From positions 123,494-187,493 of the IMG/VR virus record IMGVR_UViG_3300020442_000006: 64,000 nt of DNA; one strand, given 5' to 3'. Below, in pieces: positions 7,063-50,602 of this stretch (position 1 is the first letter of the stretch; each line of letters begins with the position of its first letter). The notes under the pieces were generated by a model. That model saw only the letters and a list, made by a program, of their open reading frames with translations, did not search any database and was not told the DNA's origin. Both the position numbers and the translations under genes were made by a program. The DNA is from a virus.

Positions 7063-7443
7063 TTATTCGACGCTTCTAATGATACTTGATTGATTGCTTC
7101 CTGTCAACATAGGTCCGATAACTCTCTGTCCTATGGGTGAGAGGATAAAACTGATGACTGTAAGAGCACCTGCGATAGTCCACATCTTTTTCTCTATCAT
7201 ACGGAGTCTTTCATCTACCAGACGGATGTCTCTCTCACATCCTTTCTTGATTGCATCTGTCTCTCTGGTGATGTCTTGATGTATTCTGTCAACTTTTTCA
7301 AACAAAATGTTATCTATCTCGTCTTGTTTGCTTAGTTTTTCATTGTGTACAGCAAGAAGTTGACCCATCTTTACAGAGTTCTCCTGTAATGAATCAACTA
7401 CTCGTTCGAGTCTCTCAATTATAGCGGTGTTAATATCAGACAT
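7063..7443 (-). CDS. Conserved coiled-coil protein with a C-terminal TM segment
   Basis: IIERLERVVDSLQENSVKMGQLLAVH...MWTIAGALTVISFIL; TAATG coupling gives a start at 7443. Confidence 0.75.
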   Translation of the reverse strand: MSDINTAIIERLERVVDSLQENSVKMGQLLAVHNEKLSKQDEIDNILFEKVDRIHQDITRETDAIKKGCERDIRLVDERLRMIEKKMWTIAGALTVISFILSPIGQRVIGPMLTGSNQSSIIRSVE

Positions 7444-9284
7444 TACATTGCTGCCTGGCGTTTCTCCCAATAATAGTGCATCACTTGAGCAGGAAGCATC
7501 CGAGTAATCTTAATACCTTTCAACCTCTCTGGTCTATAAATTTTACGAAGTCTTATCTTGACATCAGCAGGTGACTTACCTTGGAATATAAATTCAACGT
7601 CATCCATCTGCACAAGGAAAGATAGGTATCTTGCCTCGGTAGATTCACATATTTTATTTATGCCATCAGGAGATTTCTTACACTTTGCTTTCTTCTTTGT
7701 TAACTTTGGACCCTTACCTTTCAACTTGGCAGTACCACCCAACGGTTGATCCATACCTGCGGTTGGTCCGTTCTCATCAGCATCAGAGGAGAATCCTGCT
7801 GCACTAGCATTAGATCCTGTACTCATAGTAGGTGCACCTTCCTCGTGCACAAACTTCATACCCTTGATTGCTTTATCCTTAAGTGCCTGACGTTTCTTAG
7901 GATCCATATTCTTTTCGTAGTCTGCTAGTTTAGCAGCAAACTTTCTGTTATCCATCTTCTTGATAACTGCTCTGTCTTTCTTGTCAGGTCCTGTGTATGC
8001 TGCTTCATCAACAAACTTGACAGGCATTGATACTGTTCCTTTTCCTGGAACATACTTTGTAGTTCTAGGTTTCTTAGGATCATCACTCTTGAAGTCCCTA
8101 TGAATCTTAGCGTATTCCTTTTTGGTCATCTTCAATTCTTCTTTCTGGACCTTCTTCTTATCAAACTTCTTACCGATCTTACCACCAATCTTAGATCCAA
8201 CAACACCACCTACCACATCACCTACAGGTAGAGGACCGTCAAGTGCACCAAGAGCAAGTGCTCCACCGATACCACCTACAACAGAACCAATTCTCTCACC
8301 CTTACCAACCTTCTTATCTGCTGCCATCTTATTGATACGCTTCTTAGTGACAGCACTGAACTTCTCCAGTTGCATCTCTTCCTTCACGCCCTTAGTTTTT
8401 ACACCACGCTTTTCCTTGTGTGCTTTGTGTCTCTTATCCATTGCCACAAGTCTCTCAGCAGGATCAGCAGCGTTACCACCTTCACCTGTATGTCTTACGT
8501 TCCTGATAGATGCTTTACCATAGTTAGAACGACCACGTTCCTGACTTAATCTTTGACCGTCACTATCCTTTTGTCTTTCAAGAATAACCTCTTCGTTCTT
8601 TGGTTCTTCTTTTTTCTTTTTCTTTGATGCCAACTTACCACCTGCAATAGCACCTGCAGCACCACCTACACCGTGACCGATTGCTTTACCAACCTGTTTA
8701 CCAATGGCACCACCAACAAGAGGAACAGTTCCTGATCCTACTGCTTGACCAACAGCACCACCAATCTTTCTACCAACTGTAGAACCTACTGCATATCCTG
8801 CACCTGAACCAACTGCCTTACGAACTCTATTACCTTTCTTTGCAGTCAATGCTCCTGCAGTACCTGCCGCTGCTGTTCCTACGAACTCTTTAATATCTTC
8901 TTTCTTTTTCTTCTTACTAATACTTCCCTGTCTGGTGTTGCTATGATCTGCCCCACCTGGAACCACAGTCATTGCTTGTACTGCGTATGCTTCCTTATGT
9001 GTTTTGCCTGGCATTATTGTACCATCAGGCATCTTATGTGCATTCTTCTTAGGACCATAGGTGATACAAGGATCTTTACCACACCCACAGTTCTTTGGTT
9101 TTTTCTCTTCCCCAATCTTCTGAGGTAAATTCTTTTCTTTTGTTTTAGCAAACTTATTAACTGCCTTCGCCCCCATATCTTTTGCAGCACGTTTCAGTTC
9201 GGGCGATGGATCTTTCATCTCTCCCTTCTGGGTGGCACGAACCATTCCCATAAATTTACGTTGTGCTACGGATTTTGCAGGCAT
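7443..9284 (-). CDS. Lys/Gly-rich modular protein, 613 aa (candidate internal head polyprotein)
   Basis: Basic modules separated by xxE/EE motifs; two glycine-zipper segments. Confidence 0.75.
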   Translation of the reverse strand: MPAKSVAQRKFMGMVRATQKGEMKDPSPELKRAAKDMGAKAVNKFAKTKEKNLPQKIGEEKKPKNCGCGKDPCITYGPKKNAHKMPDGTIMPGKTHKEAYAVQAMTVVPGGADHSNTRQGSISKKKKKEDIKEFVGTAAAGTAGALTAKKGNRVRKAVGSGAGYAVGSTVGRKIGGAVGQAVGSGTVPLVGGAIGKQVGKAIGHGVGGAAGAIAGGKLASKKKKKEEPKNEEVILERQKDSDGQRLSQERGRSNYGKASIRNVRHTGEGGNAADPAERLVAMDKRHKAHKEKRGVKTKGVKEEMQLEKFSAVTKKRINKMAADKKVGKGERIGSVVGGIGGALALGALDGPLPVGDVVGGVVGSKIGGKIGKKFDKKKVQKEELKMTKKEYAKIHRDFKSDDPKKPRTTKYVPGKGTVSMPVKFVDEAAYTGPDKKDRAVIKKMDNRKFAAKLADYEKNMDPKKRQALKDKAIKGMKFVHEEGAPTMSTGSNASAAGFSSDADENGPTAGMDQPLGGTAKLKGKGPKLTKKKAKCKKSPDGINKICESTEARYLSFLVQMDDVEFIFQGKSPADVKIRLRKIYRPERLKGIKITRMLPAQVMHYYWEKRQAAM

Positions 9285-9655
9285 CAGAGGTCACTCAACT
9301 GTTTACTTACGGATGCATCAATCTCAACATAATCTAAGGTCCCGCATCCTGTCTCGGGGTATCTATTTAGATAGAGTAAATATGTTTTAAGGATGTCCCA
9401 ATACTGTTTGTCAACCTTGAAGACTAACAAAGGTATGGCAGCATCACCAAATACATTGAATAGTACGATCAAATGATTCAGAATCAAATGGTTACGAAGA
9501 ACCCCAGTCTTTATGTATCTCCCGAAGAGACGCTTCAAATATTTGAAGCGCATCATATCTTCAAGAAAATCATCATAAGTAACTGACTGGGGATTATCGT
9601 AGTGTTTCATAGCGAACATCATAAAGTTGTCCGCTGTGAGTATATCAAATTGCAT
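9284..9655 (-). CDS. Conserved T4-like hypothetical protein
   Basis: MFAMKHYDNPQ...RFKYLKRLF...LILNHLIVLFNVFG pattern, which I recognise from cyanomyoviruses. Confidence 0.75.
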   Translation of the reverse strand: MQFDILTADNFMMFAMKHYDNPQSVTYDDFLEDMMRFKYLKRLFGRYIKTGVLRNHLILNHLIVLFNVFGDAAIPLLVFKVDKQYWDILKTYLLYLNRYPETGCGTLDYVEIDASVSKQLSDL

Positions 9656-9672
9656 TACAAAGAAAGGTTTAA

Positions 9673-10458
9673 TTAACTAACGAAACTTAAAGTAGCGACA
9701 CTACTTACAACTTCTGCGGCACCCTTACTGGTGTTAATTTTAACTCTGTACTGGTTACCATCATTTGCTTCAGTCTGACCTGTCAATGCAAGAGATGCAC
9801 TGGTTGCACCAGATACATTACTGAATCTTCCAGAGGAAGATGTTCTCTTCTGCCACTGATAGGTGATAGTACCTGACTGATCCACAGTTGCTGCAACACT
9901 GAAGGTTGCTGCACCAGAAGATGTGTTTTGGTTAGCAGGTTGAGTACCAATAGTAATGGTCTCAAGCACGTCTGCTGCCACTGTATCATCAGCGTCGTCA
10001 CCAGATACGTTTGCTGCAACTCTAAGTGCTGCAAGTTTTTCTGCCTTGTGACGTGTAGTTCCACCTGCTGTGTTGTATGTTCTATACAACCACCAACCAG
10101 GTCCGTCAATACCACGAGTCTTGTTAGATGCGATACCATCTTCAGTCTCATCAACGAAGATAAGTTGATAGTCTGTGATGCTGTCGCCACCTTTAACTAC
10201 ATACTCAGCAACTGCCTTAGGAGGAGTTCTCCTTACAGCACCAGACAAACCTGCGTTTGTTGAACCTGCATATGCTTTGTGCAATTCGATTGCAGTTGTA
10301 CTTGTAACTTGTTTGACGATGTAAGCGACGTTTGCCAATTCTAGAACATCTCCGACAACAACGGTGTCGGCGGCATTCTTAGTAACTGTTGCGTCACCAT
10401 TTGTGACCGCGACATTATTGGAGAACGTTGCTGCGTCGATTTTGCCCAGAATGGCCAT
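9673..10458 (-). CDS. Virion structural protein with a C-terminal Ig-like domain
   Basis: Thr/Ala-rich; TITIGTQP...ATFSVAA..TYQWQK...YRVKI Ig signature; late promoter upstream. Confidence 0.8.
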   Translation of the reverse strand: MAILGKIDAATFSNNVAVTNGDATVTKNAADTVVVGDVLELANVAYIVKQVTSTTAIELHKAYAGSTNAGLSGAVRRTPPKAVAEYVVKGGDSITDYQLIFVDETEDGIASNKTRGIDGPGWWLYRTYNTAGGTTRHKAEKLAALRVAANVSGDDADDTVAADVLETITIGTQPANQNTSSGAATFSVAATVDQSGTITYQWQKRTSSSGRFSNVSGATSASLALTGQTEANDGNQYRVKINTSKGAAEVVSSVATLSFVS

Positions 10459-10488
10459 CTTGATTTACTCCGAATGTTTCCTATATTT

Positions 10489-10496
10489 TATTTATA
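10489..10496 (-). promoter_or_regulatory. T4 late promoter TATAAATA
   Basis: Perfect consensus about 30 nt upstream of the 10458 start. Confidence 0.85.
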
Positions 10497-10502
10497 CAAA
10501 CA

Positions 10503-10523
10503 CGAAAGGGACCCGAAGGTCCC
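10503..10523 (-). terminator. UUCG hairpin terminator
   Basis: GGGACC-TTCG-GGTCCC followed by TTT; short U-tract. Confidence 0.6.
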
Positions 10524-10537
10524 TAGTGCCTGTGAGA

Positions 10538-10732
10538 CTACCCCTCTACAGGGAATAGTGCCTTCTCAAGTGCCTCAACTAGTTGGTCATCAACAGTGTT
10601 GTCAGTTCTTGAGACTGCTTTCTTTGCTAGAGATACAATAAACTTCTTGATTAGATCGTCTAGATTGTCTGGAATTTTATCAACTGCTGCGTCGATAATT
10701 TTAATTGCGAAAGGTAGAAGAAATTTTGTCAT
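10538..10732 (-). CDS. Small amphipathic helical protein, 64 aa
   Basis: MTKFLLPFAIKII...TDNTVDDQLV; TDNxxDD motif. Confidence 0.7.
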   Translation of the reverse strand: MTKFLLPFAIKIIDAAVDKIPDNLDDLIKKFIVSLAKKAVSRTDNTVDDQLVEALEKALFPVEG

Positions 10733-10768
10733 AATTAATAAACAGAAACCTACTCTATATAGGTGCTG

Positions 10769-11176
10769 TTATGATCCTAAACCACGTCCTTTGTCGTAGT
10801 TATCTTTACCACCGTAACGTGCCATAGTGTTCACGTAATCTTTAGTAGTTTTGAAACCACGTTTCTTAGCATCTGCAGCAGTGGTATCTTTTTGACTCTT
10901 GCGCCTGTCTGCCATTGACTTGTACTTGCCAGTACCTACATCTGACTTAGCACCTTTCTTCTTCTTGATCTGACCAACCTCTTTGCCACCCTGCATATTG
11001 CGTACCATCCGCTTGACGCTTGCAATAGCAGAGTTCTTACCTGCACCACCTTTTTGAGTAGGTGTGCCTGCGGCAGGAGTATTGATACCAGTACGACCAG
11101 AAACTCTGCCAGTGGACTTACCAGTTTCTTTCTCGTACCGATTCAATTCGTTAAGGTATTCTCCGAAAGATTTCAT
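10769..11176 (-). CDS. Basic protein with a capsid-targeting-like N-terminus
   Basis: Starts MKSFGEYLNE; very Lys/Gly-rich. Confidence 0.7.
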   Translation of the reverse strand: MKSFGEYLNELNRYEKETGKSTGRVSGRTGINTPAAGTPTQKGGAGKNSAIASVKRMVRNMQGGKEVGQIKKKKGAKSDVGTGKYKSMADRRKSQKDTTAADAKKRGFKTTKDYVNTMARYGGKDNYDKGRGLGS

Positions 11177-11637
11177 TAGTGATTGTGCGATTCAACAATA
11201 ACCATTTCGAGTTCACTAGCAGGGACTTGACTGTACATTTGCTCTGCCTCATCTACGATGTCGTAGTGAGTGACCTCGTGAGTATGTCCATACTCATCAG
11301 GTTCTGCCATCTCTACCAAAGTATGTGCCTCTGGAATTGTATAGCACAAACCATACTCAGCGTGCTCAACATACTTAGCACACAGATGGGTTTTCTTTCC
11401 CATCGCTTTGGCAACAGTCTTTCTACGATTGATCAGATACTTATCTGACTTATCGTGGTCTCCGTCGTTGTCAATATCCTTGTCTTCTTTACCGACAGGA
11501 TCAAGTCTTGATTTTTTAGATGCTTCTTTGAGGTCAGATAGTTCTGCCTGAAGAAGTGCGCGGATGGATTCCTTCATTAGATCTTCCTTTTTAGGGTTAA
11601 TAATAACTTTTGTTTTTTTGCCCATACTATTTACCAA
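11176..11637 (-). CDS. Hypothetical protein with an EF-hand-like loop
   Basis: DKDIDNDGDHDKSDKYL; C-terminal His/Cys-containing domain. Confidence 0.7.
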   Translation of the reverse strand: MVNSMGKKTKVIINPKKEDLMKESIRALLQAELSDLKEASKKSRLDPVGKEDKDIDNDGDHDKSDKYLINRRKTVAKAMGKKTHLCAKYVEHAEYGLCYTIPEAHTLVEMAEPDEYGHTHEVTHYDIVDEAEQMYSQVPASELEMVIVESHNH

Positions 11638-13732
11638 AGTTCGGGAAGTTCTTCTTGAATAGTTCAGATGCTTCCTTGTGCTTTCCTTTGTTAGTGAGGT
11701 CCTTAGTTTGTTTTAGAACTTCACGCTTCTTCAACTGCTCTGGCGTTGGTTGTTCAGCAATGTACTTGCTGTATGCAAGACGCTCTCTCCAAGAATCAGC
11801 ATCAGGGTTACGTGCCTGTGCGATGTCGTGTTCGAAAGTTTCTTGTGCTAGTGCAAGGCGTCTTACCTTGTCCACTCTTGATTCTGTCATAGTCTCTTCT
11901 CCGAGTTTTCTTGCTAATTTATCAGACCCTTTAGAGATTGCTCTTGAGGTTTTACCAATAACTTTTTTACCAAGATTACCCGCTGCTTGACCAGTCTTCT
12001 TAACAGCACCGCCGACAGCACTACCTGTCTTCTTAACAGCACTACCTGCAGCACTAGCAGTTTTACCAACTACCTTAGCACCTGCCTTAGCAGTGCCTAC
12101 TGCTGCTTTACCACCTGCCTTAGCGACAGAACCTGCTGCTTGTGCAGTTTTACCAACCGCTTTGCCTGCAAGTTTAGCACCACCAACTGCAGTTTTACCT
12201 GCAACTTTAGCGGTACCTACTGCTGCTTTACCTGCAACTTTAGCAGTACCTACTGCTGCCTTACCTGCAAGTTTTGCTCCACCGACTGCCACTTTACCTG
12301 CTGCCTTAGCACCTGCTCCGACTGCCTTTCTAAGTCCTCTGCCGACTGCACCTGCAGCACGACTGAGAAGACCTGGACCTGCCTTCTTCTTAGGAGCGGA
12401 TGAACCACCACCTGACTGAGGTTGTGGTCTGGAGTCTCCACCTGTGGATACTGGTCTGTTGTTTGAGGAAGAGGATCCACCACCACCTGATGATGAACCA
12501 CCTGATGAACCTGATGAACCACCAAGTCCACGCTGTCTGCCTTGAGAGAATTCTCTCTTAGCAGCAGAACCTGCACGTTGTGCAAGACCTGATGCATAAC
12601 CTGCACCACGAACTGCACCTTTTGCACCTGCTTTGGCACCTGCCTTAGCAGCACGTCCTGCCATCCCAAGTCCTTTCTTAACGATAGAACCTGCTTTAGA
12701 TGCAGCGCCTTTCAATCTCTCTGCTCTCTTACCTCTATTGATGCGTGCGGCAGCATCCTTAGATGATTTGACTGCAGAGTCGTAATACTTATCTGATTCA
12801 ACAAGTAGTTCGAATCCATCCAAGATGTCAAGTGCTTCAGATAGATACTGTTCTGATTCGAAATCTAGAAGCGCCTCTACAACAACATCTTGTAGATCCT
12901 GATCTGTAAGGATGTCAAACTCTTCACCGAGTTCGTCTACAACATCCCATACCCATTCCTCGTTAGCGGGTACACAGTTAGGAACGTCCTTACCGTTCTT
13001 TTTCTTGGTACCTTTAGCAACGTAACCGTCCCAACACTTGTCAGCGCCGACGTTCTTACGTGCTTGTTTAAGTCCTTCTTCAACCTGAGTCTTAGGAGTC
13101 GAACCTTTTGCTTTGATTGATCTTTGATTCTCGCATTGAGGATCAACGGTTGACTGCTTTTCCTTAGGTGTATCAATCTTAGGAGATGCAGCACTTGGTT
13201 TGTTGTTCAGTGTTGCTGCATTAGAAGTTTCCTCCTTGATCTTTGCACGCTTTGCCTTTGTCTTGGCAAGGATTCTATCGCGTGCTTCAGATGCTGCCTT
13301 GTTAGGACCATCATATGCCATCGCACCTTTCTGCATTCTTGGTGCTCTGATCTTATCTACACCATCACCTTTGTAGATACCATAGGCACTACCTTCGGTG
13401 ACATCATCTTCGACATCGTGCTCAATAACTTTACCGTTCTCATCCTTCTCGTGATGCTCAACGTTGAGTGTCTTAGGATAATCCTTATCACCTTTCTTTG
13501 CAGGTGCTTCTCCACGCTTTCTCTTAGCGTGAATGTTATCCCATAAACCTTTCTTACCTTCGATGATAACTTCAGCGATTGCCTTCTCTGTTGGAGTGAC
13601 AAGACGCTCCTCAAGATAAGCATAGCGTGCTTCACCAGTGAAGTTATGCTCTGCGTATTCAATAACGTAGGTAACTGATTGTACGTCCGAAGGTGAATAC
13701 TTCAGAAGTTTCGAAGTAATTTCTAAATCCAT
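11627..13732 (-). CDS. Modular 701 aa protein with 11-residue Ala/Gly/Lys repeats (candidate internal head polyprotein)
   Basis: xxE-delimited modules; (AVGTAKVAGKA)n repeats; late promoter at 13755-13760. Confidence 0.75.
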   Translation of the reverse strand: MDLEITSKLLKYSPSDVQSVTYVIEYAEHNFTGEARYAYLEERLVTPTEKAIAEVIIEGKKGLWDNIHAKRKRGEAPAKKGDKDYPKTLNVEHHEKDENGKVIEHDVEDDVTEGSAYGIYKGDGVDKIRAPRMQKGAMAYDGPNKAASEARDRILAKTKAKRAKIKEETSNAATLNNKPSAASPKIDTPKEKQSTVDPQCENQRSIKAKGSTPKTQVEEGLKQARKNVGADKCWDGYVAKGTKKKNGKDVPNCVPANEEWVWDVVDELGEEFDILTDQDLQDVVVEALLDFESEQYLSEALDILDGFELLVESDKYYDSAVKSSKDAAARINRGKRAERLKGAASKAGSIVKKGLGMAGRAAKAGAKAGAKGAVRGAGYASGLAQRAGSAAKREFSQGRQRGLGGSSGSSGGSSSGGGGSSSSNNRPVSTGGDSRPQPQSGGGSSAPKKKAGPGLLSRAAGAVGRGLRKAVGAGAKAAGKVAVGGAKLAGKAAVGTAKVAGKAAVGTAKVAGKTAVGGAKLAGKAVGKTAQAAGSVAKAGGKAAVGTAKAGAKVVGKTASAAGSAVKKTGSAVGGAVKKTGQAAGNLGKKVIGKTSRAISKGSDKLARKLGEETMTESRVDKVRRLALAQETFEHDIAQARNPDADSWRERLAYSKYIAEQPTPEQLKKREVLKQTKDLTNKGKHKEASELFKKNFPNFGK
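12160..12324. repeat. 33-nt tandem repeat, about 5 degenerate units (11-aa period)
   Basis: Units start at about 12160, 12193, 12226, 12259 and 12292, e.g. TTTACCTGCAACTTTAGC(A/G)GTACCTACTGCTG. Confidence 0.85.
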
Positions 13733-13753: not shown

Positions 13754-14911
13754 CTATTTAGTTGACCCTGTTTTTCTGAAGTCACTGAATTTTTTGACCA
13801 ACTGTCCAGGTGTCATCGCTTGGACTGCGTGTCTATATGTATCAGTGCCGACCTTCCAGGTGTTTCCACTGCCATCGTCTGCTGACTTATGCAGTTCTTT
13901 TACTTCCATAATAGAAGTTAACCAGACATTGAATTTCCAATTCTCTGGTGTCTCAAAGATTACATAATTAGTTCCTCTTCTGATGACCGTACCTCTTACA
14001 CCTGTGTCTAGGTGTTCGACAATACAACCAAGTGGGAATACTCTATCTTCGAAGAACGCTTCACGAAGATTCTCTGAATCAAGTTTAGGAGCGATGTCCC
14101 AAAGTTCAGCAACCTCTTCCTGTTCCTGTTCAACGATACCCATACCTGCACGAACTTCCATCATTAGTTGTTCAGCAAGTTTGATGTCACCACCAGGGAC
14201 ACCTTGGGCAAAACCTTCTAAGTCACCCGCCGCTGCCATTGCTCGCAACTTGGATGCACTCATACCTTCTACACCTTCAGCATCAGGATCTCTTTCTCCT
14301 GCACTGATCACATTGAGTTCTTCAAATTCATATGCCTGACCGTTATACTTCTCAAGTAATGACTTGAATTCTGATACACGATCAGAACCAACAACCATAG
14401 TTACACCTGAGTAACCCTCTTGGTTGAGGTTGGAAAGTACATTGAAGATGTTAGACATATCACCATCGTTGACGATAGCGTCAGCGTGATTAGGGAACAT
14501 CTTTTGCATAAAATCAATCTTAACATCAGGTTCTAGTGGGTTCTTTTTAGGATCCACAGTACGTGATGGATAGATTCTATAGTTATCAGCACCCTGTTCA
14601 GATACAGTGTTCAGTAGTTTCTCGTGACCAACAGTAGGAGGATTAAAACGTCCAAAGGTTAGAGCGATAGTACCCAGACCTTCACCACTATTAATATGCT
14701 CGTCTTCTGCTGCTCCTTGATTGGAGTTCATCTGTGCTTGTTCTGCCTCTTTACCATCGACAGGCACCAGACGATTACCTCCTTCAGACTTAGCAACGAT
14801 GTTACCCTGCCTATCAGCATAGTAACCGTGACCTGCGTGTTGGAGACCTCTCTTAGCAGCAACCTCACCTGCAGCGGTGCGTGCTTCAGTTATAAACTGA
14901 CTGAACTTCAT
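13754..14911 (-). CDS. HIGH-superfamily nucleotidyltransferase (cytidyltransferase/NMNAT-like)
   Basis: ALTFGRFNPPTVGHEKL, MVVGSDR, GMSASKLR. The second ATG (MKFSQFITEA) is preferred because a late promoter sits at 14936-14941. Confidence 0.85.
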   Translation of the reverse strand: MKFSQFITEARTAAGEVAAKRGLQHAGHGYYADRQGNIVAKSEGGNRLVPVDGKEAEQAQMNSNQGAAEDEHINSGEGLGTIALTFGRFNPPTVGHEKLLNTVSEQGADNYRIYPSRTVDPKKNPLEPDVKIDFMQKMFPNHADAIVNDGDMSNIFNVLSNLNQEGYSGVTMVVGSDRVSEFKSLLEKYNGQAYEFEELNVISAGERDPDAEGVEGMSASKLRAMAAAGDLEGFAQGVPGGDIKLAEQLMMEVRAGMGIVEQEQEEVAELWDIAPKLDSENLREAFFEDRVFPLGCIVEHLDTGVRGTVIRRGTNYVIFETPENWKFNVWLTSIMEVKELHKSADDGSGNTWKVGTDTYRHAVQAMTPGQLVKKFSDFRKTGSTK

Positions 14912-14941
14912 TGATATACTGGTGTTTTCCATATCTATTTA

Positions 14942-16135
14942 TCACCCCCAATTTTTTTCTACTGTGAAGTTCGCTCTAGAGAACTCCAAACGATCCACAA
15001 GTTTGAGGGCAGAACCTGATTTGATCGCTACAAAACCCTCTGGTGCAGTAACTCTGTAACCATTGGGTGTCTTAATATATGTACCGATGTCTTGAACCTT
15101 TCCTAGTTGTCTGACAACTACAGTCTTAGCAGCGATCAAATTCATATAGGATGCGACAGTCATATAGACAGCACGTGAATTTGACTTCAAGAACTTCAAA
15201 CCATTTGCTTTGATGGTCTGATATTTTTTCTTGGTTGCTTCTTGTTTCTTAGACTGGATCTCTTTGTCTAGTGCTGCTGAATAGAATGCAGCAAATCCTG
15301 CTGCAACTCTCTGTGCATTGACAATAGGTTTACCAGTACGAATGAATGAGTTGAAATAAACTTTGAACATAGCAGAGAGCATAAACTTACCCTCTCCTTG
15401 ATCCTGTAGGATGTCCAAGAATCTAGATGCTTGCTTAAGAGAACCTTCAGCACGGTTGACTAGCAGATCATACTTACCTCTCTCTGCAGCATTAAACCTA
15501 GATGCATCTGTAGCATCTGTAAAGTCTGAACTAAACACTGCAACGTTGGGTGTTGCCTGCATTCTTTTTACATCAACACCAAACCCAGGTTTCATATCTC
15601 TGAGTGTAGGACCACCAGTATATGTGGTATGAAATACAATACCAAGTTGACTGGTTGCTACCTTCTTACCCATAGGTGTGTTGGTAGGTACAGCATATGT
15701 GATGGTGTTTGGCATAAAAGTATGACACTTCTGACCATTCATCTTCTTTGTTGTCACATCACCTTTGGTGAACAACAAATCACCCTGCAGTACACCATTC
15801 ATAGGTACCTGAGGAAGGAGACGCAAGCACATCTTTAGTTTCTTTGCCAGTTCTCCACTATAGAATCTATCTACATCTTCATCATTCATACAAAGTTTTG
15901 GCATCTTAGCAAAGACACCCTTAGTACCAACAAAAAACCTACCAGTTGAGGGATGCTTGCCACAAATAACAGCAGGAGCACCGTCCCATTTGGTAGTAAC
16001 ACCGACACCTGACACAGGTTCGGTGAGCATCTTGCCAAGTTCCCTTAGGAATGCGATAGCGTTACGTCCTCCGTTCGAACCTTGGTTTAGGATGTCATCT
16101 TCAAGGTGTTCGAGGTGGGTATTTTGCTTTGCCAT
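14942..16135 (-). CDS. Conserved phage protein with covalent nucleotidyltransferase (RNA/DNA ligase-like) motifs
   Basis: TTKWDGAP (motif I KxDG), LQGDLLF, IVFH, PEGFVA..LKLVD (motifs IV/V-like). Start MAKQNTHLEHLED. Confidence 0.65.
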   Translation of the reverse strand: MAKQNTHLEHLEDDILNQGSNGGRNAIAFLRELGKMLTEPVSGVGVTTKWDGAPAVICGKHPSTGRFFVGTKGVFAKMPKLCMNDEDVDRFYSGELAKKLKMCLRLLPQVPMNGVLQGDLLFTKGDVTTKKMNGQKCHTFMPNTITYAVPTNTPMGKKVATSQLGIVFHTTYTGGPTLRDMKPGFGVDVKRMQATPNVAVFSSDFTDATDASRFNAAERGKYDLLVNRAEGSLKQASRFLDILQDQGEGKFMLSAMFKVYFNSFIRTGKPIVNAQRVAAGFAAFYSAALDKEIQSKKQEATKKKYQTIKANGLKFLKSNSRAVYMTVASYMNLIAAKTVVVRQLGKVQDIGTYIKTPNGYRVTAPEGFVAIKSGSALKLVDRLEFSRANFTVEKNWG

Positions 16136-16142
16136 ACCTTTA

Positions 16143-16976
16143 TTATACCTCGTATCGGACCACAATGGCATTTTGACGGACACCTGTAATTTTGTCCTTA
16201 CCCCTGCCCTTCAATGCCATCCTGACACCTGCCTGTTTCATCACACCTCTGACTACTTTCTCATCAATTTCTTTCACACCATCCTCAGTGAGGATATGAG
16301 ACGCTGCTCTGTCATCATTGTTGAATAACATAGCACCTGTCATACACTCGTGTGTAAGATTATACTTGAAGCAATCATATGCAGCAGCACCATCAGGTTT
16401 TGATTTCGAACCTAGCACTTCTTGCAACTGTTCATTCAATCCACCTGCCTTCTTTATATCTGAAAGGATTCTTTTTGCTGTTGGTTGATCAACAGTTCCC
16501 TTTGCGTTCTCACATTTATTACCAATCTGCTCAAGGATCAACTGTAAGTAACCAAGTGTCTGTGCGTTAGTAGATCCACCACCACAATCCTTAGCAGTCT
16601 TTGCTAATACTTTTTGGAATACTGCTACAGACTTATCAATGCCTGCAGATGTCAACTGATATGACTTGCCCCATTTCATAGAGCATTTGTATGTCACACC
16701 ACCTGACTTAAACATAATGTCTGTCTTTGGTTCTTCTCCACCACCAGACATCTTTTGGAATGACTTATAATATTTCTGCCTTGCTTCTATATTATTACCA
16801 GTAGGTGCCATAGACTCAACAATTCTATCTGCAGCAGACTTTATATCATTTGGGATAGCACCAATACGTCCTGATGCATCCTCAAAATCTTTCTGGTTTT
16901 GCGAACTCTTATTAATAATACGACTCGTTGCCGAGTACATCACAGCGTGTTCAAATTGCAATCCTTTGTTTGCCAT
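16143..16976 (-). CDS. Hypothetical protein, possible PD-(D/E)xK nuclease fold
   Basis: N-terminal FE; EPKTDIMF..YKCSMKW resembles a PD..(D/E/S)xK catalytic layout; late promoter at 16995-17000. Confidence 0.45.
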   Translation of the reverse strand: MANKGLQFEHAVMYSATSRIINKSSQNQKDFEDASGRIGAIPNDIKSAADRIVESMAPTGNNIEARQKYYKSFQKMSGGGEEPKTDIMFKSGGVTYKCSMKWGKSYQLTSAGIDKSVAVFQKVLAKTAKDCGGGSTNAQTLGYLQLILEQIGNKCENAKGTVDQPTAKRILSDIKKAGGLNEQLQEVLGSKSKPDGAAAYDCFKYNLTHECMTGAMLFNNDDRAASHILTEDGVKEIDEKVVRGVMKQAGVRMALKGRGKDKITGVRQNAIVVRYEV

Positions 16977-25503: not shown

Positions 25504-26007
25504 ATGAAAAGAGCAGCGATGCTTTTTGTTATGAGTTTGATGACGGCACCTGCATATGCCGATGTTACACATAAATTATCTTCTTCAGTACAACTTACTG
25601 TGGACGCGGCAGCAACAAATGTACAGCGTGTCGGTACAACCTACAGTGTAAGTGGTAACAACGTGACTACACAATACACACCTAGTGGTGGTTCTGCTAC
25701 GTCATCTATTGGTTCCCTTACTGTCAGTTCAGGCGTTGGAGCAATTCCATCATTGACAGCGACCCAAGCAACTGCAGGGGAAAGTTTCAGTTTTACTCAG
25801 TCATTCTATCAAGGTGACGCCATAAGCACTAGCGCACCCAGTTTAGGTGCTGTTGGTAACTACTCCAACCAGACTTCAACTGCTGCAGGTACAAAAGACA
25901 CATTAGCAGGTACCATCGATACCTCAGGAACGATGGCACTAACAGCAGGTGGTGCAGGTACCAGTGCTGTGGGTCAATTTGTCTCCGAGATTACTATCGG
26001 AAACTGA
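25504..26007 (+). CDS. Secreted Ser/Thr/Gly-rich protein
   Basis: Signal peptide MKRAAMLFVMSLMTAPAYA|D; beta-rich mature part. Confidence 0.8.
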   Translation: MKRAAMLFVMSLMTAPAYADVTHKLSSSVQLTVDAAATNVQRVGTTYSVSGNNVTTQYTPSGGSATSSIGSLTVSSGVGAIPSLTATQATAGESFSFTQSFYQGDAISTSAPSLGAVGNYSNQTSTAAGTKDTLAGTIDTSGTMALTAGGAGTSAVGQFVSEITIGN

Positions 26008-27286: not shown

Positions 27287-27839
27287 ATCCTGTAGTAACT
27301 ACTAACCCTGCTGAAGGGATGTTTTCTACAATCTGTTGTTGAAGATTAAGTTTCTCTGTTACTTCAATACATTCTTTGCCTACGAGTTCGTAAGCAACAA
27401 TCTTTTTATTACCCTCTAGGATCTTTCCTATGGGGTTTTTTAATTCTTGTGCCCTAGTAGGACATTTTGGAATCTCTGTCTTAGGGATTTTTGTCTCAGG
27501 AACATTTAATTCTGGTTTCTGATTCTCAAACTTAGGTGGTTCTACTGGTGGTCCAGAGAGTGTCAACCCTTCAGGACTATAGTCAAGAGGATTGAACGAA
27601 GGAGTTGATGCATCACAATACACCCTCGTTCCTTTAGGGTCATCCTCTGTGAGGTTTTTATTCTTACCATCATCTGCTTCGTGTGCCTCTACACATCCAG
27701 GGATGTTGATGATAGGCACACCAACCTGTGTAGTAACAGGAGGGTAGATCGGTATTGCCTGTGGTGGATTGTTTAACCAGTCAAACGTCCTAATGGGAGG
27801 TATGTCTAGGTTTCTCACACCGATCTCAGGGATTTCCAT
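27072..27839 (-). CDS. Pro-rich protein with a C-terminal TM segment and basic tail
   Basis: PIINIPGCVEAH..YCD..CPT..EC; ATSALLAKPLADLLLKVVKP. Confidence 0.75.
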   Translation of the reverse strand: MEIPEIGVRNLDIPPIRTFDWLNNPPQAIPIYPPVTTQVGVPIINIPGCVEAHEADDGKNKNLTEDDPKGTRVYCDASTPSFNPLDYSPEGLTLSGPPVEPPKFENQKPELNVPETKIPKTEIPKCPTRAQELKNPIGKILEGNKKIVAYELVGKECIEVTEKLNLQQQIVENIPSAGLVVTTGSIAAVAATSALLAKPLADLLLKVVKPAVKKTVQKIGIAFGRVPKLQSLRDRQDHQRMRTRALRELRKMKKR

Positions 27840-47322: not shown

Positions 47323-48690
47323 TTACATAAGGTTGTCAACCAAACTACGTCTGTAGTAACGGTTAGCGTTAGCAGTAAGAGCGCCACTACCCTGAGTTGT
47401 ACCTTCAGCAAATGGGTTTGCAACAAGACCGTATCTTGTCTTAAATCCGATTTTTGGTTGGAAGGTGTCCTGACCAACGGCTCTAACCATTTGGAGAGGA
47501 ACATAAGGACAGTAGAACAGACCTGCATCATATGCAGAACTACCCTTGTAACCTGCGACATAGAAGTGTCTGTCGCTGATGTTAGCAGAATAAGGATCAA
47601 CATAAACCTTGATTCTACCGTTAAGAGTACCAGCAAGTGTGCTGGAGTTGTCATCAGGAAGAAGGTTGCTGTTGCCTGAAAGTGCGGGTGTGTAGTCAAG
47701 AACGCCTGCCATTGACAATGCAGATGCAACGTCAGCAGAACAGATCAGGATGTTACCCTTACCGCGTCTTGTCTCGTGCCCGATGGCATTCATATCTCTT
47801 TCGATGTTGAAGAGAAGACCTTTGAACTTCTCAACTGACCATCTACCGTTGGAGTCAACGTCAAGATCGAAAATACCTGCAGTTGCTGTGTTTGACTGAG
47901 AACCAGGTCTTGCAACCTTGTACACAGTTCTAACAACTTCACGGTTGATCTCAGCAAGAACCTCAGTAGACAAGATGTTTGCCAACTCAGATTCAGCGTC
48001 AAGTCCGTGAACTGCCTTAAGATCTTGAGCAAGTTCCAAACTGTACTCTGCCTTGAGTGCTCTGGACTTCGCAGTCACAGTAACTTTCTCAATGCTGAAG
48101 TTCATTTCAGCGAAGGCATTAGAACCAGTACCGAGAGTCTCAGACTCATCAGTTCTCATTCCTGTACCGTTGGTGTATGTACCAGAGTCATTAAGAAGAC
48201 CTGGGTTTGATCCTGCCTGAGCAGAACCTGCAGAACCGAAACCGCTAGTTCCTGCGGCGTCAGTACCTGTGAATTGTGAATCTGCTTCGTTGAAGAATGC
48301 TTCGTCACCAGATGCTCTGTTAGTACCGTATCTAGATCTCATTGCGAAGATCAGACCAGTAGGACCAGTCATAGGTTGAACGCCTGCAATGTCATAAGCA
48401 ATAAGCTTAGGCATTGAACGTCTGATCAAGGAGATCAGAACAGGGTCGAAACCTGCAACAGGACCAGTTGCTGTAGCGTCAGCAGAGAAACCTGCTGCAC
48501 TGCTTGAAGAACCTGTAGAGTTAGTAGGTGCTGCCTCAGTAAGGATGCCTCTTTCTTCCTTCAGGAATGATTCTTGGTTTTCGAGCAGGATTGCGGTGAC
48601 CGCCTTTTTGTAGTTGTCCTTGATGGAATCAAGACCCTCACAATTAAGAACGGGTGACCACTTCTCCTGCAGATGCTCGGATTTGAACAT
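47323..48690 (-). CDS. g23: Major capsid protein (gp23)
   Basis: KWSPVL, LENQE, FDPVLISLIRR, GVQPM.GPTG, KSRALKAEY, FYCPYVPL, GFKTRYG. Confidence 0.99.
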   Translation of the reverse strand: MFKSEHLQEKWSPVLNCEGLDSIKDNYKKAVTAILLENQESFLKEERGILTEAAPTNSTGSSSSAAGFSADATATGPVAGFDPVLISLIRRSMPKLIAYDIAGVQPMTGPTGLIFAMRSRYGTNRASGDEAFFNEADSQFTGTDAAGTSGFGSAGSAQAGSNPGLLNDSGTYTNGTGMRTDESETLGTGSNAFAEMNFSIEKVTVTAKSRALKAEYSLELAQDLKAVHGLDAESELANILSTEVLAEINREVVRTVYKVARPGSQSNTATAGIFDLDVDSNGRWSVEKFKGLLFNIERDMNAIGHETRRGKGNILICSADVASALSMAGVLDYTPALSGNSNLLPDDNSSTLAGTLNGRIKVYVDPYSANISDRHFYVAGYKGSSAYDAGLFYCPYVPLQMVRAVGQDTFQPKIGFKTRYGLVANPFAEGTTQGSGALTANANRYYRRSLVDNLM

Positions 48691-48741: not shown

Positions 48742-49734
48742 TCACTTAGTCCAACGACGGAGTGCATCAACGTACTTAGACATTGAATCCGTCATCTCTG
48801 TATCCACAACAGGTTGTACATCCTCAGCGATCGTTTCTGCTGCAACGCTAGGTTTGCCGCTGAAGTACGACTCTCTAAGAGTCTCGATTTTGCTGCGGAA
48901 TGACTCTTCATCTTCAAACTCAACACCTTCAGAGAGACCTTGGAGTTTCTCTTTCTCGGTAGATGCGAGACCTTCTGCGATCTCACTCACGATCCCATTC
49001 TTAGCGAACGATGCAACTTCATTTGTAAGTGCAATGTTCTTATCAATTTGTTCGTTGAGTTTTGCTTCCATCTCATCTAGTTCAGTCACCATATCGGTAA
49101 TGATGTCTGCTTTTTCTTCGGGAACTTCAATGTGGTTCTCGATGAAAACTTGTTTAAGTCCACTAACTACGCTCTCTGCGATCTCTGCTTTGAGACCAGT
49201 TTCAACAGCGAGTTGGTTAGCATCGATCCATTGCTGACAAGCATATGTAAGATACTCATCTACCTGCTCAGCAAGGGAAGACTTAATGCTTTCGACTTCC
49301 TCTGAAAGAGTAGCAGCATATTCAGTGTGAACACGCTCTAGTTCTTCATTCAGTCTTGATACGACAGCAGCTTCAAAGATAGTTGCTGCTTTTGTTTTGA
49401 ACTCTTCAGAAAGATCTTCGCCTTCTGTAAGAGCAGCAACATCCTGAGAGACATCGATCTCAATAAGATCTTCGCCTTCAGCATTTTCTGCTTCCACTGA
49501 TTCGTGCTTCTTAGGTGAAGCATCGGAAGGTTTTGTCTTTGGTGATGCTGCCTGTGTTTGTGATGGAGTCTTCAGTTTGTTTGACTCATCATCAGGTTTT
49601 GAGTTCTGAGGTGTAGGACCTCCGAGATTCTCAACGCCACCCAAAGAAGAACCGTCAGCAACAGCACCGTCGAATTTTGCTTCGGTGACTTCCTGCTTTT
49701 CTTCGGATGCCATTACTTCATTCTCTTGTGACAT
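48742..49734 (-). CDS. g22: Prohead scaffold protein (gp22)
   Basis: Acidic; LSEEFK.KAATIFEAAV, YL.Y...W...N.LA, F..K...LRESYF. Confidence 0.93.
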   Translation of the reverse strand: MSQENEVMASEEKQEVTEAKFDGAVADGSSLGGVENLGGPTPQNSKPDDESNKLKTPSQTQAASPKTKPSDASPKKHESVEAENAEGEDLIEIDVSQDVAALTEGEDLSEEFKTKAATIFEAAVVSRLNEELERVHTEYAATLSEEVESIKSSLAEQVDEYLTYACQQWIDANQLAVETGLKAEIAESVVSGLKQVFIENHIEVPEEKADIITDMVTELDEMEAKLNEQIDKNIALTNEVASFAKNGIVSEIAEGLASTEKEKLQGLSEGVEFEDEESFRSKIETLRESYFSGKPSVAAETIAEDVQPVVDTEMTDSMSKYVDALRRWTK

Positions 49735-49782: not shown

Positions 49783-50433
49783 TCACAGGGAGTTTAAGAA
49801 TTTTGAAAACGCGGAAATCTTCCGCTCTTCAAGAATCTTGCTACTGGCAGCATTGTCAATTTGCCTCTTCATATGGTTAATTTCAGACTCTTGAATGATT
49901 CCGTTATTCCAGATCCATTCTTTGCCTTCCATAATTCCATTGACAAAAGCATCGGGTGCTGAAGGATCAGCAACAATGTCTGCTGCGGTTGCCAACATAA
50001 AATCATCAGCAACTACTTTTGCTCCGTCACGAGTTTCTTGGAGTGAACCAATTCCACGTGATGAAACACCTAGTTTCACGCCTTCACCCAAAAGGTTCTT
50101 AGCGATGTTACCCATAGGAGTATCTAGGATTCTTGCTCTTCCTCTGAAGTTGTTACCTTCTTGGACTAGCGATGTGATCAAATGTGATACACGGTCGAGG
50201 TTAACTGTTGGTCCATCAGGATGTCCCAGTTCGCCGAGGGCGCGACCATTTTTAACAAAAGATTCATTGTATTTATCAACTTCTCTACGGAGTGTGTTGA
50301 TAGGGTACATTCTTCCATTGCGATTTTTGATCTCGCCTTGTAGGAATGTTCCTTCTATGTATAGATTTTTCTTACCGTTCTTCTCCTCAGAAAGGATCTG
50401 AACGTCTTCAATCTGTTCCGTAATCAGTTTCAT
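49783..50433 (-). CDS. g21: Prohead protease (gp21)
   Basis: MKLITE, YIEGTFLQ, NRNGR.YP, GELGHP, GVSSRG.GS, DIVADPSAP. Confidence 0.98.
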   Translation of the reverse strand: MKLITEQIEDVQILSEEKNGKKNLYIEGTFLQGEIKNRNGRMYPINTLRREVDKYNESFVKNGRALGELGHPDGPTVNLDRVSHLITSLVQEGNNFRGRARILDTPMGNIAKNLLGEGVKLGVSSRGIGSLQETRDGAKVVADDFMLATAADIVADPSAPDAFVNGIMEGKEWIWNNGIIQESEINHMKRQIDNAASSKILEERKISAFSKFLNSL

Positions 50434-50602
50434 TTGGTTCCTCTTGAGTTTCAGGTTGCATCCAGTCACCTGCAATTTCCTTTTTCTTTGCTTCTAGAGC
50501 ATCGGCGGTAATTGCTTTCATCGCATCATCAACTTCACTACTGAGATCTTTCGATCCCGAAAAGATTTTGTTGACGATTTCTTTCGCTTGAATTGATGGC
50601 AT
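50408..50602 (-). CDS. Prohead core protein (gp67/68-like)
   Basis: Small helical protein between g20 and g21. Confidence 0.65.
   Translation of the reverse strand: MPSIQAKEIVNKIFSGSKDLSSEVDDAMKAITADALEAKKKEIAGDWMQPETQEEPNETDYGTD

Follow-up and report, generated by a model that had tools for sequence, protein, structure and literature searches.

A cluster of modular basic proteins in a T4-like cyanomyovirus genome as a candidate counterpart of the T4 internal-protein system

A cluster of genes for basic, modular proteins was analyzed in a 64,000-nucleotide stretch of viral DNA (positions 123,494 to 187,493 of the IMG/VR record IMGVR_UViG_3300020442_000006). This whole stretch is called the window, and coordinates refer to it unless another record is named. 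The window is part of the 187,493-bp genome of a T4-like cyanomyovirus, and the closest isolates to this genome are P-SSM3, P-RSM1, and P-TIM40. A preliminary description, made from the letters of the window, had presented positions 7443-13732 as one cluster of capsid-packaged polyproteins cut by the gp21 prohead protease. The open reading frames (ORFs) and motifs quoted there are all present in the sequence at the places given. The products of the cluster are very probably packed inside the phage head, based on head-targeting leaders and on chains of modules joined by protease motifs. The cluster is probably the cyanomyovirus counterpart of the internal-protein system of phage T4 in an expanded and combinatorial form, with products that would be cut by gp21, retained with the DNA, and ejected.

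The cluster is located between gp61 and gp41. The genes, all on the minus strand, are nrdA, the gp61 primase gene, a DUF7201 protein gene, p613, p123 (DUF7207), p261, p64, p135, p153, p701, p392 (a cytidylyltransferase/NMNAT-like enzyme), a DUF6267 protein gene, and p277. The gene order is syntenic with P-SSM3, P-RSM1, S-SCSM1, and S-SM1. About 20 modules of 30-70 residues make up p613, p701, p153, and p135. They are single-copy in this genome and all lie inside the cluster; p613 and p701 have no modules in common. ORFs on the opposite strand or in alternative frames within the p613 and p701 genes showed no match in PHROG, and they were taken as shadows of the low-complexity coding strand. The positions of the main features are listed in Table 1.

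Table 1. Positions of the cluster genes, their modules, and the head genes discussed in the text
Feature	Position	Strand	Description
p613	7443..9284	-	Basic mosaic protein of 613 residues, isoelectric point (pI) 10.1; homologues carry the same modules in other combinations
M15 (p613 residues ~549-613)	7446..7640	-	beta-beta-alpha-beta-alpha; predicted local distance difference test (pLDDT) 86-93 in AlphaFold2 (AF2)
M14 (p613 residues 482-520)	7725..7841	-	Copy of the gp23 maturation site/mature N-terminus
M13 (p613 residues 428-481)	7842..8003	-	Between V-D-E and V-H-E
M12 (p613 residues 382-427)	8004..8141	-	Ends V-D-E; inside a p701-type protein in relatives
Second glycine-zipper stretch (p613 residues 332-377)	8154..8291	-	NCBIfam YiaD glycine zipper, e-value 9e-7
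Glycine-zipper-like module (p613 residues 134-236)	8577..8885	-	Gly/Ala-rich; preceded by I-K-E
M1 (p613 residues 1-59)	9108..9284	-	DUF3008-like; ends I-G-E
p261	9673-10458	-	phrog_613 'head protein' with an immunoglobulin (Ig)-like C-terminus
Exact TATAAATA	10489-10496	-	31 nt upstream of p261
p135	10769..11176	-	Small basic protein (pI 10.3); N-terminal leader of the T4 capsid-targeting type
Leader of p135 (residues 1-10)	11147..11176	-	Like the T4 capsid-targeting sequence (CTS); aromatic at 4 and 7, Leu at 8, Glu at 10
p153	11176..11625	-	DxDxDG-type acidic module, then His/Cys-rich acidic tail
p701	11627..13732	-	Mosaic protein of 701 residues, pI 9.75
M11 (p701 residues 660-701)	11630..11755	-	Preceded by internal CTS-like Y-x-x-Y-I-A-E; located mid-protein in P-RSM1
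Basic tract (p701 residues 313-612)	11897..12796	-	Net charge +51; no internal site
Tandem repeats within the basic tract	11963..12322	-	11-residue (33-nt) Ala/Gly/Lys/Val repeats; Tandem Repeats Finder, period 33 at 12159-12313 (4.7 copies) and 11990-12061
Acidic helical stretch (p701 residues 260-330)	12743..12955	-	Six close [LIVM]-x-E sites; propeptide-like
M6 (p701 residues 220-259)	12956..13075	-	Two-Cys beta-hairpin module; weak hairpin in AF2
M4 (p701 residues 114-164)	13241..13393	-	After V-T-E here, after V-E-E in other contexts
M2 (p701 residues 59-92)	13457..13558	-	
p701 residues 1-60	13553..13732	-	Helical domain ending I-I-E, conserved in p701-type proteins; AF2 pLDDT 72-84
CTAAATA	13755..13761	-	Late-promoter-like motif, 23 nt upstream of p701
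p392 (T4-GC190)	13754..14911	-	Cytidylyltransferase/NMNAT-like enzyme, ~385 residues; CTS-like leader at 14885-14911
GATAAATA	14936..14943	-	Late-promoter-like motif, 25 nt upstream of ATG 14911
gp23 maturation site	48427..48549	-	I-L-T-E (gp23 residues 48-51), then residues 1-37 of the mature protein
gp22 scaffold	48742-49734		Pfam T4_CASP, e-value 3e-75
gp21 prohead protease	49783..50433	-	Proposed processing enzyme; Pfam Peptidase_S77 (PF03420), e-value 3e-35

The structural gene block in the window is apparently complete and T4-like (gp18, gp20-gp23, and neighbours). The gp23 of the window was confirmed by a match to Pfam Gp23 (PF07068), with the domain beginning at gp23 residue 78. T4 gp23 is cleaved after residue 65 (PMC9546572), and the gp23 site of this phage, proposed in the preliminary description as ILTE/AAP, indeed aligns with that cut. 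The cleavage rule of T4 gp21 is L/I-x-Glu (PMC9026906). The T4 enzyme needs very few determinants, and accessible core proteins are degraded (PMC9026906, PMC9546572).

p613 consists of 22% Lys+Arg and 13% Gly. Seven [LIVM]-x-E sites (Glu at P1, a hydrophobic residue at P3) divide it into eight basic pieces of 54-125 residues. Three of the seven, at residues 59, 427, and 481, coincide with homology-breakpoint peaks, and those at 133 and 236 recur in a second context. M1 matches phrog_26015 and phrog_28725 (e-value 1e-12), scores 16.3 bits against Pfam DUF3008 (PF11450; cut-off 24), and is found in S-SCSM1 as a stand-alone 69-residue 'virion protein'. The glycine-zipper-like module at residues 134-236 is inserted after I-N-E in another protein (L021), while the second glycine-zipper stretch scores 22.6 bits against Pfam Gly-zipper_Omp (PF13488; cut-off 25). 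M13 is 83-89% identical in P-SSM4, P-SSM3, P-RSM4, and S-TIM4, where it lies inside otherwise unrelated proteins. The last 65 residues, M15, are the sole confidently folded part of p613 in the AF2 model and correspond to the conserved core of the T4-GC426/phrog_696 family (e-value 6e-24 for phrog_696). The fold search of M15 against PDB returned no match with an e-value below 0.6; the best rows, small anti-CRISPR and UDG-inhibitor proteins with e-values of about 0.6, were treated as noise.

p701 is composed of an N-terminal helical domain, mini-modules, an acidic site-dense stretch, a 300-residue basic tract, and two C-terminal modules. Its composition is 18% Lys+Arg, 12% Gly, and 15% Ala, and the basic tract contains 44% Ala+Gly, 42 Lys, and 3 Glu. 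[LIVM]-x-E occurs 16 times in p701 against 7.6 expected (p 0.002), and the excess is retained against local shuffles (9.1-9.5 expected, p 0.006-0.011). AF2 modelling of p701 residues 1-330 predicts disorder around the junctions: pLDDT is below 50 around 111-113, 165-167, and 217-219, as it is around the M14 junction of p613. The neighbouring p153 probably starts at the ATG at 11625, and its modules are fused into a p701-type protein in S-SM1, P-RSM1, and S-SCSM1. A frameshift fusion of p701 and p153 was considered and dropped because homologues start p153 at an ATG directly after the p701 stop. Close relatives retain the C-terminal half of p153 (11176-11400, minus strand) as one unit; it is acidic, has many His and Cys residues, and possibly binds metal.

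No family was found for p701, p135, or p153 in Pfam and NCBIfam. Proteins similar to p701 are labelled 'cytidyltransferase' in phrog_764 and in RefSeq (metaG-MbCM1, S-SSM4, S-SSM5), while p701 has no match to the nucleotidyltransferase domain (CTP_transf_like) in Pfam/NCBIfam. The label seems to originate in the true enzyme lying next to these proteins or being fused with them.

The modules recur in many orders and ORF partitions. In a survey of 321 proteins with simple markers, 80 module orders were observed, including both M2-M6 and M6-M2, together with duplications and ORFs beginning at a module start. Comparison of 95 loci revealed that the same modules move among p613-type, p701-type, and p135-type ORFs. 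In tblastn searches against isolates, p613 and p701 were matched solely in pieces of 40-60 residues, with 75-90% identity, in different proteins. The 1101 representative clusters reached in an exhaustive search with p701 mostly match it in one or two modules, and among isolates the modules are nearly confined to T4-like cyanophages. Homology breakpoints pile up at residues 59, 427, and 481 of p613 and at 58, 167, 219, and 612 of p701.

Modules tend to start directly after [VILM]-x-Glu. Counted over distinct contexts, this holds for M6 in 11 of 11, M14 in 8 of 9, M4 in 3 of 4, M11 in 6 of 10, and M2 in 4 of 6. In 150 mutually distant representatives, M6 has 52 distinct upstream contexts, and P1 is Glu in 42 of these; nine of the ten others conform too when a Gly is counted as part of the module. 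At P3, 36 of the 52 have V, I, L, or M, and P2 and P4 vary widely. M2 behaves alike; it was found 98 times among 150 distant representatives, nearly always 1-3 residues past hydrophobic-x-E, and 11 times it opens a stand-alone ORF. Unbiased all-against-all breakpoints show the same tendency: the last aligned residue is Glu in 24.8% (background 8.6%), and 22-24% have a site no more than two residues away (against 12.3%). Given Glu, a hydrophobic P3 is enriched 1.75-fold in the family and 1.15-fold in the rest of the genome. The junction motif matches the gp23 and leader sites of this lineage, and the gp22 scaffold, which belongs to a known substrate class, carries 19 [LIVM]-x-E against 11.4 expected. 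The conservation of P1 and P3 with free P2 and P4 points to a short recognition motif rather than to a structural cap or a DNA-level recombination site.

Module shuffling at x-x-E boundaries across cyanomyoviruses, which the preliminary description had put forward for comparison, was thus seen among about 320 related proteins. Its claim that the modules are bounded by the motif is strongly supported by this comparison; within the single sequences, the motif is not enriched in p613 and is about twofold enriched in p701. The pattern that it used, (I/L/V/x)-x-E, is too loose, as x at P3 lets any Glu qualify.

Residues 479-520 of p613 align with gp23 residues 48-88 (hhalign probability 97.9%, e-value 5.9e-13, 41 columns), so that the similar stretch comprises the gp23 cut site and the start of mature gp23. 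Unadjusted tblastn gave 65% identity over 34 residues between M14 and gp23. Composition-adjusted BLASTP of p613 against gp23 gave 16 bits for this stretch, and that comparison was not relied on. p613 has no match to the Gp23 domain (PF07068), and the similarity is limited to the 41 columns outside that Pfam domain. Searches of S-SM1 and P-RSM1 with the gp23 N-terminus returned a T4-GC426 gene and an unannotated 67-codon ORF. The latter ORF, which lies in P-RSM1 between CPPG_00120 and CPPG_00122 (NC_021071, record positions 79614-79685) and carries the gp23-like peptide, is probably a missed or truncated gene of the T4-GC426 family.

The C-terminus of p613 (residues 479-613) is a member of the T4-GC426/phrog_696 family, annotated as 'major head protein' (P-SSM3 PRAG_00080, locus L001 6276-6815; S-SM1 SSM1_197), and its identity to the S-SM1 protein is 32% over 131 residues. 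In this phage, about 480 residues of other modules precede the family member in one fused protein. The same label is used in RefSeq for phrog_696 proteins of S-WAM1, P-RSM6, S-SZBM1, and S-SCSM1. It is a misnomer, apparently given only because about 40 residues at the N-terminus resemble gp23; a Gp23 domain is absent from the family. In fused proteins, M14 is preceded by [LIV]-x-E in eight of the nine contexts. The stand-alone homologues in relatives are separate genes that start with M-N-E followed by the gp23-like peptide, so cutting would give the same mature end in both arrangements. In four of five phages, a small sample, the M14 peptide is nearest to the gp23 type of its own phage. In unexpanded T4 heads, the gp23 region that matches M14 is on the inside, probably in contact with the scaffold core (PMC9546572). 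By this analogy, M14 may serve as a second head-targeting device.

A leader like the capsid-targeting sequence of T4 is found at the N-terminus of p135 and of p392. In T4, mutagenesis assigned leader residues 4 and 7 to targeting and residues 8 and 10 to processing (PMC9026906). The p135 leader has F4, Y7, L8, and E10, and its reading as a CTS in the preliminary description, which quoted the same ten residues, holds residue by residue against these experimental positions. The T4 leader quoted there was also correct, as judged from the ipII and ipIII leaders obtained by translating the T4 record. In T4, Asp at leader position 10 prevents processing and leaves targeting intact. In p392 of this phage the leader is one residue shorter (F3, F6, I7, E9, then Ala), while most homologues have the aromatics F4 and F7; the leader's final Glu is followed by Ala as in T4 ipII and ipIII. 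p392 starts at ATG 14911 and not at 14932. GATAAATA overlaps the stop codon of the upstream gene, and a transcript starting a few bases downstream of this motif would omit the first ATG (14932). Relatives of p392 possess the second start only. The leader is kept in 96 of 96 p392 homologues at an overall identity of about 45%.

The scan of all six frames of the 187-kb genome for a T4-like N-terminal leader returned two ORFs, p135 and p392, both in the cluster, against 0.02 expected from codon-shuffled genomes; the pattern was written after both matches were known, and the p-value is therefore optimistic. In other phages, at least five further unrelated ORFs of the cluster bear a CTS-like leader, and the C-terminal module of p135 is joined to other modules in P-SSM3 and P-RSM1. 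Full CTS-like motifs at internal positions are rare, the sole recurrent case being the one that precedes M11, which indicates that the CTS is mainly an N-terminal device and not a general linker. Stand-alone DUF3008-like virion proteins of 69-72 residues (S-SCSM1 gp279, locus L003 7001-7210, and locus L095 11591-11809) have a CTS-like peptide, aromatic-x-x-aromatic-L-x-x-x-E, at the C-terminus instead of the N-terminus.

Motifs of the form NTAAATA are located 19-40 nt upstream of p261, p701, p392, and p277, and likewise upstream of gp18, gp20, gp22, and a gp3-like gene. For homologues of p701, several clades share the upstream motif even though its flanking sequence differs. The resemblance to T4 late promoters supports the earlier assignment of these genes as late. 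The literature search on expression timing yielded nothing usable. Exact ATAAATA heptamers in the window are all on the minus (coding) strand (12 of 12), seven of them within 60 nt upstream of a gene start.

Homologues or positional counterparts of the cluster products were detected by mass spectrometry in purified virions of S-SM1 and S-SCSM1, which bears out the suggestion that they are packaged. In S-SM1 virions, Sullivan et al. 2010 (PMC3037559 Table S8) reported 25 peptides of T4-GC190 (the enzyme), 17 each of T4-GC426 and T4-GC425, 12 of T4-GC1453, 10 of T4-GC1454, and 7 of T4-GC1455. The S-SM1 record places these groups in the syntenic cluster. BLAST comparison indicated that SSM1_191 shares modules with p701 and p153, that SSM1_197 is homologous to p613 residues 489-613, and that the detected proteins include the p392 homologue. 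The syntenic genes of S-SCSM1, including the 69-residue stand-alone copy of M1, are annotated as mass-spectrometry-verified virion proteins. In the published proteome of S-SZBM1 virions, the enzyme and the product of the next-numbered gene are present; homology of the latter to the cluster was not checked. p123 and p64 correspond in S-SM1 to T4-GC198 and T4-GC424, and neither group is among the detected rows examined. No peptide-level proteome data were found in the S-SCSM1 supplement.

The following course of events would be consistent with these observations. The cluster genes would be transcribed late. p135 and p392 would enter the core of the assembling prohead through their CTS, and the C-terminal part of p613 through the gp23-like peptide, which may bind whatever the gp23 N-terminus binds within the unexpanded head; p701 would enter by some other route. 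Activated gp21 would then remove the leaders and cut the disordered junctions. From p613, about eight basic pieces of 54-125 residues would arise, and from p701 several small modules, short acidic peptides, and the 300-residue Lys/Ala/Gly-rich polycation. The short acidic peptides would leave the head, while the basic pieces would remain on the DNA as counter-ions and exit with it at infection. A further proposal, tentative and rather doubtful as a whole, is that cyanophage heads are loaded from a library of about 20 modules, as permutable polyproteins that are targeted by the leader and the gp23 mimic, cut by gp21, and injected as early effectors. Such effectors might be anti-defence, DNA-protecting, or membrane-active, and the gp23 mimic would track the gp23 of its own phage.

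Several observations weigh against packaging as cleaved precursors. p613 and p701 have no CTS, and their N-termini are of other kinds. The number of [LIVM]-x-E in p613 is at the chance level (7 against 6.3 expected, p 0.43). The folded enzyme p392 contains 13 such motifs, and since these surely are not all cleaved, the motif has no predictive value by itself. Sites accompany just 22-24% of the automatically called breakpoints, and the start of M12 and some contexts of M2 and M11 are junctions without a hydrophobic P3. No cleavage product, N-terminus, or size shift has been seen for any member of the family, the published proteomes being fully tryptic. These points bear on the alternative that the proteins are packaged intact as beads on a string, with at most the CTS leaders removed. 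The acidic hydrophobic-x-Glu-Gly junctions would then be flexible linkers, or module caps kept for folding or recombination. The chance-level count in p613, the many breakpoints without a site, and the recurrence of acidic runs of the type E-E-V-E-x-V-E-E as linkers all fit this alternative. It is nevertheless unlikely, as the junctions show the signature of a recognition motif, with P1 Glu and P3 V/I/L/M conserved and P2/P4 free, and this motif equals both the T4 gp21 rule (PMC9026906) and the gp23 and CTS sites of the phage itself. Given the few determinants of T4 gp21 and its degradation of accessible core proteins, disordered junctions inside a prohead would be hard to protect, and M14 would end up with a single mature N-terminus whether fused or stand-alone.

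Virion detection does not separate head from tail, and two other alternatives concern the place of the proteins. They could be auxiliary scaffold or core proteins like T4 gp67 and gp68, which would build or size the prohead, be degraded by gp21, and be mostly expelled before packaging. The similar motif enrichment of p701 and gp22, the acidic site-dense stretches, and the scaffold or shell contact suggested by the gp23-like peptide are in line with such a role. It is very unlikely, however, because several homologue peptides were found in CsCl-purified mature virions and the pieces are strongly basic and Lys-rich like the retained T4 internal proteins, whose lysines contact DNA (PMC3012670). 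The extreme module turnover fits arms-race cargo better than an essential assembly factor. Still less probable is a position outside the head lumen (tail, baseplate, or neck) or a function as membrane-active, channel-forming ejection proteins. On this view, insertion into the host envelope would be the task of the glycine zippers, with matches just under threshold, and of the 11-mer amphipathic repeats. Weak PHROG similarity to tape-measure and tail-lysin regions was observed; together with the glycine zippers it would also fit a membrane-active ejection role, which is a further point against the main interpretation. The PHROG tail matches are, however, confined to a low-complexity Gly-rich stretch, the neighbours begin with a head-targeting leader, p613 includes a peptide derived from gp23, and the T4-like structural gene block of the window appears complete. 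Membrane insertion after ejection is compatible with packaging in the head, and it is tail location alone that conflicts with it.

The proposed system shares with T4 IPI, IPII, and IPIII the ten-residue leader, in which residues 4 and 7 are aromatic, residue 8 is Ile or Leu, and residue 10 is Glu (Mullaney and Black, reviewed in PMC9026906 and PMC3012670). Other common features are small basic Lys-rich proteins, a protease of the same family in the genome, and late expression signals. Among the diverse internal proteins of T-even phages the CTS alone is conserved (PMC3012670, PMC9026906), and their hypervariable loci (Repoila et al. 1994, cited in PMC9026906) have the same layout as this cluster, with a leader conserved across diverse proteins. 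Unlike in T4, one tagged protein here is a nucleotidyltransferase of about 385 residues, the two large proteins are leaderless, and the locus lies among replication genes. A T4 internal protein is a single gene product cut once, whereas the precursors here would have many modules and internal sites.

In phiKZ, 201phi2-1, and SPN3US, a gp21-like protease cleaves inner-body and ejection proteins at several sites of the form S/A/G-x-Glu (PMC9026906, PMC7411985, PMC10052503). As in the proposed system, processing of many head-internal proteins of the phiKZ type takes place after Glu, in short motifs and with little else required, propeptides contain several redundant sites, and the mature parts remain with the DNA. 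There is no sequence similarity between the two; the phiKZ-type proteins are large folded paralogues with removable propeptides instead of permuted modules of 30-70 residues, and P3 is small in their sites and hydrophobic here. The T4 core proteins gp22, gp67, and gp68 are likewise cut at many L/I-x-Glu sites and have acidic site-dense stretches, and gp68 also has a basic tail. They are conserved assembly factors that are mostly expelled, while the family described here is hypervariable and has homologues in mature virions. The literature search turned up no paper describing either a CTS or cargo polyproteins for cyanophages. From the T4 internal-protein/CTS and phiKZ systems, the proposed system differs in the stringing of permutable mini-modules into precursors and in the gp23 mimic.

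Internal head proteins are the first molecules of a phage to enter the cell, and T4 IPI is a classic anti-restriction weapon. T4-like cyanophages are among the most abundant viruses in the ocean. In marine cyanomyovirus proteomes, the products of this cluster are recorded merely as 'structural' or 'hypothetical', and some are mislabelled as 'major head protein' or 'cytidyltransferase'. If the proposal is true, it would account for the NAD-type nucleotidyltransferase that recurs in virions and would define a mode in which cargo is packaged and diversified as polyproteins. Injected proteins in thousands of ocean phage genomes could then be predicted by a simple rule based on the leader, the hydrophobic-x-Glu junctions, and the gp23 mimic.

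The preliminary interpretation is supported for late expression, packaging, the CTS, and the shuffled modules, but not every gene in positions 7443-13732 belongs to the system. The counterparts of p123 and p64 were not detected in S-SM1 virions, and the Ig-like virion protein p261 is a separate case. Of the members, the cytidylyltransferase p392 has the best support, and its gene is just outside that interval.

p261 is possibly a Hoc-like decoration protein, and two weaker copies of its Ig-like domain lie elsewhere in the genome, outside the window (genome coordinates 27513-27797 and 25756-25983). Directly upstream of the leader-bearing NMNAT-like enzyme, the DUF6267 protein (413 residues, 14942-16183, minus strand) contains a K-x-D-G motif, which is typical of covalent nucleotidyltransferases (ligases). 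Between gp20 and gp21, an acidic ORF of 64 residues (50408-50602, minus strand) matches DUF7216 just below the threshold, and the T4 core genes 67 and 68 occupy the equivalent position.

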